64,000 bases of DNA from Candidatus Aenigmatarchaeota archaeon (GTDB lineage: Archaea > Aenigmatarchaeota > Aenigmatarchaeia > Aenigmatarchaeales > Aenigmatarchaeaceae): contig JAZDKZ010000005.1 in NCBI GenBank assembly GCA_043802485.1, positions 1-64,000 of the forward strand. The letters are read 5' to 3'. Position 1 is the stretch's first letter; each line of letters opens with the position of its first letter. A program made the position numbers and the translations under genes. The notes under the pieces are model-generated. The model searched no databases and was not told the DNA's origin. It saw only the letters and a list, made by a program, of their open reading frames with translations. This document shows, in pieces, positions 11,568-14,334 of the stretch.

Positions 11568-11732
11568 TTACAAATCGCAAGGTCTTACGGTTGCTCTTCC
11601 GTTGTCCTTTGCTCTTTTTGCAGCCATCTTGAGCATTTCGTCGACCTTCTTGTCCAAAGCTACGTAAAGGTCTCCTGCTGCTCTCATTCCCTTCAAAGCT
11701 GTCTTTACTTTTGATCTTACTGTTAAACTCAT
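11568..11732 (-). CDS. Short histone-fold protein (54 aa; face-to-face/Bd0055-like type), not in ORF track
   Basis: Manual translation MSLTVRSKVKTALKGMRAAGDLYVALDKKVDEMLKMAAKRAKDNGRATVRPCDL; GGTGA SD; RxTV..DL histone L2 motif with truncated alpha3. Confidence 0.85.
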   Translation of the reverse strand: MSLTVRSKVKTALKGMRAAGDLYVALDKKVDEMLKMAAKRAKDNGRATVRPCDL

Positions 11733-11838
11733 CAAATCACCTTGTTTATTGATGTTTGTTGATGTTTTTAAAGGTTTTCAGAAAGCCTGTTTTCGGGGGT
11801 TTAAACCCTGTTTTGGTTCAGAATAAAAAAGAAATGAA

Positions 11839-11953
11839 TGCCCCCACAGGGATTTGAACCCTGATTTGCGGCTTTCCTCAGTCATCTTTGGGATCATATC
11901 CTTCGAATGAGTTCGAAGGGCCGCAGTCCTTAGCCGGATTAGACGATAGGGGC
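11839..11953 (-). tRNA. tRNA-Glu(TTC) with 40-nt intron at 37/38 (11874-11913)
   Basis: GCCCCTA/TGGGGGC acceptor, GCGGC/GCCGC anticodon stem, 4-nt variable loop, CAGGG-TTCAAAT-CCCTG; BHB central helix CCTT/GAGG; C rather than T at 33. Confidence 0.8.
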
Positions 11954-12391: not shown

Positions 12392-12464
12392 TGGGCCGGG
12401 CAGGACTCGAACCTGCGATATCCACCGTGTGAGGGTGGCGTCATAGCCGCTAGACCACCGGCCC
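12392..12464 (-). tRNA. tRNA-Val(CAC)
   Basis: GGGCCGG/CCGGCCC acceptor, CCACC-CT-CAC-AC-GGTGG, GCAGG-TTCGAGT-CCTGC. Confidence 0.95.
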
Positions 12465-12475
12465 AAAAAATAAGG

Positions 12476-12589
12476 CGCCGAGGGTGGGATTTGAACCCAC
12501 ATGCCCTTTCAGGCACTAACTTTCCGCCATTGATAGCAGGCTAGCGCACCACCAGATTATGCGTTCGAGGATTGAATATCTACCTCGGC
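12476..12589 (-). tRNA. tRNA-Ser(GCT) with two introns (8/9: 12564-12581; 37/38: 12522-12533)
   Basis: GCCGAGG/CCTCGGC acceptor, G73, CTAGC-CT-GCT-A..A-GTTAG, long variable arm; both inserts form BHB-type motifs. Confidence 0.88.
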
Positions 12590-12590
12590 A

Positions 12591-13253
12591 TTAAACGCCC
12601 TCGGCAATAATTCTTTGAAATTTGATGCTTTTATTACTATGTCTAGAACCAACGAGCTTGATGAATTTTTTAACAGATTTTGTTTTCAAAAGCAATTCAA
12701 AACTTGGAAGTCTTCTCGCATACGGCCCATTTAATGAATACTCCAATCCAAAAGAATCCAGGAGCAAGCATAACGACTCCAAGCCATTTCTGTTGGAAGA
12801 ACTAAACCTTATTCTGGGTGTACTCCTTGTAAAATCTACTGAACCGTCACCGTCAAAGAATCCTCGAATGAAGGCCAACTTTATTTTATCATTAGATTCA
12901 AGCACGCATTCGGGAACATCCCATTTCAAGCAACCCAATTTCACATATCTTAAAAGGTCTCTTATGATGTTCTTTTTTGTTATACAAACCCTAAAAACGT
13001 TTTTGTTGCTTTTGGTAATTTTTGGTTCATAATCATACGCTATAGAAAGCAGCTTTACAAAATGCTCAAGCAAGGGCATGTCCGTATTGCTAAATTCTAT
13101 TATTTCTTTCCACCTCTCCCTGAGAAAAACCGCCTTTCTCCGTCTATCCTTCTCAAAATACATGTCATAATAACCCCTATGGTTGCCTTCAGCGCACAAT
13201 AAACCTAAAATTTCAGCTTTTTCAGGGGTTATTTCAAGGTTCATAGAATTCAC
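12591..13253 (-). CDS. Free-standing double-motif LAGLIDADG homing endonuclease
   Basis: KAEILGLLCAEGN and AFIRGFFDGDGSV motifs, IEFSNTD, IRFSSSN; no intein Cys1/His-Asn ends; AT-richer; start may be ATG 13244. Confidence 0.88.
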   Translation of the reverse strand: MNSMNLEITPEKAEILGLLCAEGNHRGYYDMYFEKDRRRKAVFLRERWKEIIEFSNTDMPLLEHFVKLLSIAYDYEPKITKSNKNVFRVCITKKNIIRDLLRYVKLGCLKWDVPECVLESNDKIKLAFIRGFFDGDGSVDFTRSTPRIRFSSSNRNGLESLCLLLDSFGLEYSLNGPYARRLPSFELLLKTKSVKKFIKLVGSRHSNKSIKFQRIIAEGV

Positions 13254-13328
13254 ATTTTTCCTGATAAAAATTTATATATCTATAGTATAATTTATTAATA
13301 TCAATATAACATTTTTGGAGGAAATAAA

Positions 13329-13625
13329 ATGGTTGTAACAGTAAAAAACCTATCAGAGGTATTTGGCAAGGACGTCTTCACCAACAGGGGAGTTTTCTGT
13401 GGAAGGGTCGCTGACATAGAGGTCAACCTGTCAAAGTTCAGGATAAACGCTGTCGTCATAGAGACAGGTAGAGGCTCCTTTTTGGCAGACATGGTCGGAG
13501 GCAAGAAGGGAGTGGTTGTTCCTTATCAGCTCGTGACAAGTGTCGGAGACGTTGTAATAATAAAGCACATAACGCCTACAATGCCAGAGAACTCATCTGA
13601 AGAGCTTGAATCTACTGCAATTTAG
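13329..13625 (+). CDS. PRC-barrel protein (CdpB-like)
   Basis: GKDVFTNRGVFCGRVADIEVN...GVVVPYQLVTSVGDVVII; GGAGG SD. Confidence 0.85.
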   Translation: MVVTVKNLSEVFGKDVFTNRGVFCGRVADIEVNLSKFRINAVVIETGRGSFLADMVGGKKGVVVPYQLVTSVGDVVIIKHITPTMPENSSEELESTAI

Positions 13626-14334
13626 CCCTGACAATCTCGGCTAGAGAATGGTAAATCAGCTTTCCTGCCATCAGCGTATGCGTGACATTTTTTGTTGGAA
13701 CGAATTCTACAAAGTCTATTGCTACCAAGTTCTTGGCTAAAGCTTTCACTCCTTCCATGACCTGGGCAAACGTCAGGCCGTCTGGCTCAGGGTTGGCAAC
13801 AGCAGGCATTATTGATGAATCCAAAACGTCAAAGTCTATCGAAAGGTAGACAGGCCCCTTTATTTTCTTCAGGTCATCAAGAGTAGCCACTTTTATGCCA
13901 TTTTTCTTCATGTATTTCCATTCATTCTTCGAAAAGCACCTGGCGCCGTAAAGGACCGTCTTGATGCCTTCTTCTGCTATCTTTCTGGTAACCGTGTCAT
14001 ATCCCAACTCGCCTTCCTCGCAGTCAGGGTGAGCATCAAACGAGACAAATACCTTGGGCTTGACAGCCTTGACACCCACATAGGATACGGAATGGTCTCC
14101 GCCGATTATAACCGGGAACTTGTGATCCAGCTTGAGCTCGGCCTCGGCAATCATCTCACTGTATTTATTCGGCAGTATGTTGCCCAAATCCACAAAGCCA
14201 TGCTCCTCCAGATCCATCTGATTGATGAAGGTCTCCATCTGGGGCAGGATCCTTCTAATCTCTATCGGAGCGTTCTGGGAGCCCCTGGCAAAGGTCTTCC
14301 TGTCCAAAAGTATGCCCAGCAGTTCGAAATCCAT
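13612..14334 (-). CDS. Agmatinase/arginase-family ureohydrolase
   Basis: GGDHS, DAHPD, YLSIDFDVLD, PAVANPEPDG, DFVEFVP. Confidence 0.9.
   Translation of the reverse strand: MDFELLGILLDRKTFARGSQNAPIEIRRILPQMETFINQMDLEEHGFVDLGNILPNKYSEMIAEAELKLDHKFPVIIGGDHSVSYVGVKAVKPKVFVSFDAHPDCEEGELGYDTVTRKIAEEGIKTVLYGARCFSKNEWKYMKKNGIKVATLDDLKKIKGPVYLSIDFDVLDSSIMPAVANPEPDGLTFAQVMEGVKALAKNLVAIDFVEFVPTKNVTHTLMAGKLIYHSLAEIVRAKLQ

Follow-up and report, generated by a model that had tools for sequence, protein, structure and literature searches.

Within the window, the 64,000-nt stretch of contig C5 that we analysed from a 769-kb Candidatus Aenigmatarchaeota genome, a gene for a free-standing LAGLIDADG endonuclease runs up to a tRNA-Ser(GCT) gene that carries a micro-intron at position 8/9. 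Based on our analysis, the best reading of this locus, to which we give a probability of roughly 0.6, is collaborative homing of an enzyme-leader-intron cassette with putative activity. The cassette would consist of the endonuclease gene, a leader within its last codons, tRNA nt 1-8 and the BHB micro-intron. This reading is based on empty alleles in the congeners G001 and G003, on the co-occurrence of enzyme and intron, on enzyme clades that track their targets, on intact catalytic acids and on an excess of silent changes. In the proposed mechanism, the enzyme would first take the tRNA promoter, and the enzyme tail would provide a promoter and leader for the tRNA. When a second allele enters the cell, the enzyme would cut the intron-less tRNA-Ser(GCT) DNA across nt 8/9, and repair from the cassette allele would copy enzyme and intron jointly; with its site split by the intron, the donor would be immune. 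Host EndA would excise the intron, aided by a duplicated tRNA 5' end that would pair with the 3' acceptor strand and free the true nt 3-6 for the splice helix. After fixation of the site the enzyme would decay or be deleted, and the intron and tail would persist, being needed by the tRNA.

The tRNA-Ser(GCT) gene (12476-12589, minus strand) was matched by Rfam at 29.5 bits and was missed by ARAGORN. It comprises exon 1 (nt 1-8; 12582..12589), exon 2 (nt 9-37; 12534..12563, with the anticodon GCT at 12537-12535) and exon 3 (nt 38-73, with the long variable arm; 12476..12521), which are separated by the 18-nt BHB intron at position 8/9 (12564..12581) and by a 12-nt intron at the canonical position 37/38 (12522..12533) that has a relaxed hBH motif, all on the minus strand. 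The single possible placement of the 18-nt intron is 8/9, fixed by the intron-less allele of G003 and by two Ser paralogues of the same genome. There it forms a strict hBHBh' motif with a central helix of 4/4 pairs, an inner helix of 3 bp and an outer helix of 4 bp, two of which use leader bases. Removal of both introns gives the G003 gene sequence, except for one compensatory T-stem pair, and one EndA gene, at C7:89250-89756, was found in the genome. In a strain variant of the locus, the 8/9 intron has two changes, both of them loop bases, and a G-U pair of the 37/38 intron has become A-U through a single change. The gene is flanked downstream by a conserved neighbour, tRNA-Val(CAC) (12392..12464, minus strand), and on the other side, beyond the endonuclease gene, by a conserved, divergent PRC-barrel gene (13329..13625, plus strand), which served as synteny anchor; coverage of the locus by RNA run X7 was confined to 13531-13700, in the PRC-barrel gene. 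Elsewhere in the window, a tRNA-Glu-like gene with a long anticodon-loop intron (11839-11953) was called Arg by ARAGORN and has an intron-less Glu(CTC) paralogue at C6:229926, and a small histone-fold-like ORF with a weak DUF1931 match (E 0.003) lies between tRNA genes at 11568-11735. Further tRNA genes of the genome with non-canonical or multiple introns, in the D arm and T arm, are found at C7:69619-69987 and C4:44151.

The endonuclease gene (12591..13244, minus strand) encodes a two-motif protein of 217 aa from the ATG at 13244, or of 220 aa from an alternative GTG at 13253. Its stop codon ends at 12591, and a single T (12590) separates it from G1 of the tRNA (12589), exactly the 1-nt spacing reported by an earlier, sequence-only reading of the locus. 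The ORF matches Pfam LAGLIDADG_3 (PF14528) with an E-value of 2e-16. The predicted structure has a pLDDT of 96.8, with PI-PfuI and I-DmoI as top fold matches, and Foldseek comparison with I-DmoI, I-Tsp061I and PI-PfuI gave E-values of 2e-11 to 7e-9 and TM scores of 0.60-0.73 at an identity of 16-18%. The monomeric two-motif fold and both acidic catalytic positions are common to all of these; however, the three known enzymes lie inside an intron or intein, the intron of I-DmoI being located in rRNA, whereas the endonuclease here stands outside the intron. Its catalytic acids are E19 and D133; among the 48 aligned homologues, position 19 is E or D in all 48 and D133 is invariant. Comparison with the strain variant gave 24 enzyme-gene differences among the 40 of 147 differences listed, with 15 codons silent and 7 changed, an excess of silent changes (p 6e-4) over the 32% expected for transitions among the listed differences. 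One contig of run X3 carries a 1-nt deletion at 13172 that shifts the frame, and several family members have internal stops, as is expected of homing genes that decay. Close homologues are present in named records with the labels Aenigmatarchaeota and Woesearchaeota/Nanoarchaeia, which suggests a DPANN origin, and no close homologue was detected among the 80 viral loci kept (best E 9e-9). A second free-standing LAGLIDADG gene in the genome (C6:74873-75754) has a 293-aa frame with an extra N-terminal part and no listed tRNA nearby.

Given these properties, it is very improbable that the protein is a domesticated or dead DNA-binding protein of the WhiA type, or the remains of an intron-encoded ORF, and not a mobile nuclease. 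WhiA regulators are characterized by a full-length profile match, loss of the catalytic acids and a C-terminal helix-turn-helix. The endonuclease had earlier given a weak match to WhiA models (E 1.8e-6), and WhiA appears among the database labels; however, its score against the WhiA profile is 21.6 bits for a cut-off of 44.1, the alignment spans only positions 60-170 of 304, the catalytic acids are kept, the WhiA tail is missing, and WhiA structures rank 39 and 43 in the structure search, below endonucleases. We therefore rejected a WhiA-like regulator, an identity that the sequence-only reading had named as one that would refute its own proposal. An origin as an intron-encoded ORF could draw on a more distant LAGLIDADG gene that lies inside a 693-nt canonical (37/38) tRNA-Tyr intron (L006, G040:C3), but at the present locus a complete tRNA follows the ORF and no tRNA exon was seen upstream of it, and this candidate was rejected as well. 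The family also has a patchy distribution, with 16 of 301 genomes positive in the class and 7 of 301 in a Woesearchaeota order, and this too speaks for a mobile gene.

When the comparison is anchored on the PRC-barrel gene, both the enzyme and the introns are missing from the Ser(GCT) locus in two of three congeners, G001 and G003. These two thus also lack the 37/38 intron, a similar version of which is present in the third, G002. Homology to G003 ends at 12563 and restarts at 13257. What lies between, namely enzyme, leader, exon 1 and 8/9 intron, is therefore one block (12564..13256, minus strand), which replaces ~18 nt of the G003 allele. A contig in run X2 skips 845 nt (12469 to 13315) and may represent an enzyme-free relative. 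Of the 30 enzyme-free Ser(GCT) loci of the order that were read by eye, none has an 8/9 intron, five have D-loop introns and five have introns at 27-31. A TATA-like box (13271..13278, minus strand) lies 26 nt before the endonuclease ATG, and the same box lies 23 nt ahead of tRNA G1 in G003, which suggests that the endonuclease captured the tRNA promoter. Inside the ORF tail, a TATA-like sequence (12629..12636, minus strand), 23 nt before the upstream tRNA copy described below, is a candidate replacement promoter for the tRNA; an analogous box is present in the tail of Leu-type enzymes.

Thirteen of the 16 family genes in the class lie at a tRNA 5' end, and 31 distinct loci of this kind were counted over all collections, leaving out three genes with weak class matches off tRNA 5' ends (G232, G289, G171) as well as G467; rows at contig ends (L021, L027), without upstream DNA (G017) or with an unresolved tRNA (G026) were dropped. 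Twenty of these loci have an 8/9 intron, three a 9/10 intron, four a D-loop intron, and four (G011, G175, G220 and G166) have none in the 5' region. The D-loop introns were rejected as a family-specific feature, and the four cases are weak support, since such introns also occur in five of the 30 enzyme-free Ser(GCT) loci. The targets are tRNA-Ser (four anticodons), tRNA-Cys and tRNA-Leu(TAA), and the introns at 8/9 or 9/10 in Ser(GCT), Ser(CGA), Cys and Leu(TAA) are 15-38 nt long and dissimilar in sequence. A script found the central BHB helix with 4/4 pairs in 33 of 38 loci, and the five that it mis-registered were placed by eye. In the enzyme tree the clades track the target tRNA: the Leu enzymes form one clade of 16 rows (support 99/94) and the Cys enzymes one of six rows (99/93), and host family f1 appears in four places. 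That the Leu enzymes form one clade may reflect few events. For six of the seven other members of the clade to which our enzyme belongs, the protein tails suggest an in-frame extension that fits read-through into the 8/9 intron. In three Leu(TAA) loci with the intron at 9/10 (L017, L028, L098), the enzyme ends 100-150 nt upstream, with a separate promoter region between, and at L281 and L283 distant LAGLIDADG genes lie just downstream, not upstream, of tRNA-Met-like genes.

Pattern searches for the same tRNAs provided controls. The Ser pattern gave 26 matches in 301 genomes; two of these genes contain an intron, and it is these two that adjoin the enzyme, which was beside none of the 24 intron-less ones (Fisher p 0.003). 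For Leu, among the 150 matches listed (there were 13 more), the enzyme was beside five of 19 intron-type genes and none of 131 intron-less genes (p 2e-5), and for Cys, with 63 matches, it was beside two of five genes with the 8/9 intron and one of 58 without (p 0.015); these three values overstate significance, as related genomes are not independent. An A10-T25 pair in the D stem was considered as a mark of immunity and rejected, being present in 24 of the 63 Cys genes, only three of them enzyme-adjacent. These controls indicate that the enzyme predicts the intron and that the intron often stands alone. The co-occurrence suggested by the sequence-only reading is thus borne out in one direction, but intron-only alleles are common: they account for 14 of the 19 listed intron-type Leu genes, three of the five intron-bearing Cys genes and one Ser gene (G121). 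Of 13 enzyme-negative intron-type Leu loci examined (G515, one of the 19, was left out), 11 show no enzyme over at least 700 nt of upstream DNA, another runs out in a truncated enzyme and the last is uninformative; none of 20 intron-less Leu loci examined has an enzyme upstream. The idea of an endonuclease paired with a protective intron holds to the extent that nearly every enzyme gene adjoins a tRNA whose 5' end is altered, and falls short at the four of 31 loci without a 5' intron.

The frequency of intron-only alleles would also fit a history without joint mobility, in which the 8/9 introns are independent in origin, perhaps as a guard against cutting or integration, and selection favoured them where a lineage met the enzyme. 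That introns protect tRNA genes has already been proposed, in the available text of PMC4090602 and PMC3293823. We regard such host defence or shared ancestry as quite unlikely, since enzyme, leader and intron are one block that is absent from G003, and since some intron-only alleles keep tail-like sequence. In one of them (G148), 14 of 15 enzyme-tail residues and the intron are kept and the enzyme is absent, which fits enzyme loss, and the tail score is higher in intron-type than in intron-less Leu genes (p 0.002), a difference confounded by promoter and leader motifs. Another genome, G294, keeps an enzyme-tail relic and has no intron. At one locus without an enzyme (L404, G167:C5), an orphan copy of tRNA-Cys nt 1-30 stands directly before a complete, differently coded 5' end, possibly the scar of a deleted cassette.

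The same tRNA is also the neighbour of a second enzyme family. In G002 (L258) and G012 (L267), a different LAGLIDADG gene, with 31% identity over 120 aa, occupies the Ser(GCT) site; orphan pieces of the tRNA 5' end (nt 1-8 or 1-16) lie upstream of this gene, and the introns are at 29-31. All 11 close relatives of the G002 enzyme precede tRNA-Ser(GCT); read by eye, seven of these 11 loci have an intron at 27-31, one has it at ~21/22 and three have none in that region. The second-family locus of G121 has an 8/9-type intron with the duplicate too and is a counter-example to strict pairing. Two families with one gene and two intron positions are hard to explain by hitch-hiking alone. Upstream of the second-family enzyme, beside the TATA box, loci L414-L422 carry a motif identical to nt 20-27 of tRNA-Ser, the bases that directly precede the 27/28 intron site; the motif is kept in eight of the 11 loci despite a protein identity of 42-54%, and can be read as a relic half-site or as an autoregulation operator.

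These observations bear on the possibility that an active enzyme homes with no role for the intron, its target being the leader/tRNA junction or some other stretch of the gene and its immunity coming from its own insertion or from point changes, with the 8/9 intron a co-converted passenger. The four loci without a 5' intron point in this direction, as do G166, with its recoded D arm and an orphan nt 1-15 fragment upstream, and the 37/38 intron common to both enzyme-bearing congeners, which suggests co-conversion. However, the leaders of empty alleles are AT-rich and unconserved and would serve poorly as a homing target, introns of dissimilar sequence are found at the same 8/9 position in four tRNA isotypes, and the other enzyme family goes with another intron position at the same gene. 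We therefore consider homing without the intron rather unlikely, and prefer joint homing of the enzyme and the intron.

The sequence-only reading had pointed out that the last codons of the enzyme repeat the tRNA 5' end, and this was confirmed: TGCCGAGG occurs at 12606-12599 and again at 12590-12583, and the duplicated segment (tRNA nt -1 to 7 plus 9 nt; 12590..12606, minus strand) constitutes both the last ORF codons and the pre-tRNA 5' leader. A duplicate with a match of 6-7/7 within 30 nt upstream was found in all nine Ser/Cys genes with the 8/9 intron, in none of eight enzyme loci without that intron and in one of 56 intron-less Cys controls. The duplication is beyond chance and goes with the intron, not with the enzyme. 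To build its central helix, the 8/9 intron requires nt 3-6, bases for which the acceptor stem competes. The fold of lowest energy contains the splice helix and has the upstream copy paired to the 3' acceptor strand. As equilibrium predictions at 37 C with assumed transcript starts, partition functions put the splice-helix probability at 0.97 for the native leader of 22 nt, at 0.00 when the leader is cut to 2 nt and at a mean of 0.44 for shuffled leaders. For six Ser/Cys genes, the mean probabilities were 0.73 (native), 0.00 (short leader) and 0.36 (shuffled; native above shuffled, p 0.016), and for 22 Leu genes 0.38, 0.00 and 0.05 (p 2e-5), three of nine Ser/Cys and two of 24 Leu loci having been left out as not located by the script. 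In ten of the 22 Leu genes, the probability is at most 0.05 even with their own leader. The Leu genes are mostly without the duplicate, and a leader motif complementary to the D loop is present in 18 of 22 intron-bearing and two of 20 intron-less ones.

The folding results suggest that the repeated tRNA 5' end in the enzyme tail acts as an RNA decoy for the 3' acceptor strand and as part of the outer BHB helix. On these models, a splicing decoy appears to be a better explanation of the duplication than a link to the enzyme; co-transcriptional folding could form the splice helix without any decoy. A target-site duplication made by the enzyme was rejected, the copies flanking 8 nt and not the gene and being absent in 8/8 enzyme loci without the 8/9 intron. 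The upstream copy matches the spliced allele as far as nt 16, but this is no more than suggestive, because part of the match is forced by the outer helix. GCGTT in the enzyme tail (12598-12594) and the complementary AACGC at the 3' junction of the intron (12565-12561), to which attention had been drawn earlier, are both present, but their pairing lies outside the predicted folds and was not seen in three other Ser leaders (G071, G183, L097), and it was discarded as a functional feature.

In joint homing of enzyme and intron, the intron would be copied from allele to allele. The sequence-only reading had suggested a route for the gain of tRNA introns, and here the data show intron spread but not intron creation. 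It is a tentative and less likely extension that the enzymes also create tRNA introns, each family dictating its own position (8/9 here, 27-31 in the second family), with the tail locked in as a splicing aid. A break at nt 8/9, followed by fold-back and slipped-copy repair, could give an inverted copy of nt 3-6, which would form the splice helix, and the same repair could give the tandem copy of nt 1-7 that would serve as decoy leader. Against cassette homing itself we counted the four of 31 loci without a 5' intron, the excess of intron-only over enzyme-plus-intron alleles in Leu, the exceptions G121 and G294, the internal stops, the X3 frameshift, the ten of 22 Leu genes with a low splice-helix probability and the single clade of Leu enzymes. 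Near-identical paralogues that the enzyme would have to leave uncut were counted as well: the two intron-less Ser paralogues of the genome, at C6:228122 and C1:25548, each have one difference from the predicted target within nt 1-21 (position 6 or 7), so that the enzyme must discriminate at position 6/7 or use upstream bases.

The closest known system, in the available descriptions, is F-CphI of cyanophage S-PM2, which adjoins an intron-bearing psbA gene in a case of collaborative homing (PMC6083498, PMC2988022). In both, a free-standing endonuclease stands beside a gene with an ORF-less intron, which would prevent self-cleavage and itself become mobile. In contrast to that system, the present locus lies on an archaeal chromosome and has a LAGLIDADG enzyme, an 18-nt protein-spliced BHB intron and a cleavage that is predicted; its target would lie in a tRNA, 9 nt from the stop codon, and the enzyme tail is the tRNA leader and is predicted to aid splicing. 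As described in the parts of PMC2988022 available, SegB in the T4 tRNA region is likewise an optional free-standing gene adjoining tRNA genes, and host promoters embedded in seg endonuclease genes favour gene retention; however, the T4 seg enzymes are phage proteins of the GIY-YIG type that cut at a distance from their gene, and no intron takes part. The introns themselves resemble non-canonical archaeal tRNA BHB introns, with strict or relaxed BHB motifs, several introns per gene and EndA present, as far as these are described in the available text of PMC4090602 and 10.64898/2026.10.13.758758, and differ in that the outer helix must use the 5' leader. Position 8/9 is absent from the positions named in that text, but the list ends with 'etc.' and the position may already be on record. 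Single-subunit DPANN EndAs have been associated with many disrupted tRNAs (PMC5829648, in the portion available). For Caldiarchaeum tRNA-Thr, the accessible text of PMC3293823 similarly links a mobile element to tRNA intron gain and a stranded tRNA fragment, but with a recombinase/integrase model. The word 'homing' does not occur in the available text of PMC4090602, 10.64898/2026.10.13.758758 or PMC3293823, and a literature search, covering mostly abstracts, found no published account in which archaeal tRNA micro-introns are paired with free-standing LAGLIDADG genes.

The finding addresses the question of how archaeal tRNA introns arrived at odd positions. The accessible part of the Asgard preprint 10.64898/2026.10.13.758758 describes tests of copying, mobile elements and reverse transcription, reports no general route and calls the arrival route open. 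The present locus would provide a concrete, DNA-level arrival route that is directly testable: the enzyme is small, G003 supplies a natural empty allele of almost the same sequence, the cut position is predicted, the two paralogues can act as internal controls, and for the second enzyme family a cut at another point of the gene is predicted. Genes of this kind escape standard tRNA finders, as tRNA-Ser(GCT) did here. If true, our reading would take collaborative homing beyond the group I introns of phages, to cellular genomes and their protein-spliced micro-introns, and in the leader-as-decoy model the tail of a selfish gene could become needed for tRNA maturation.
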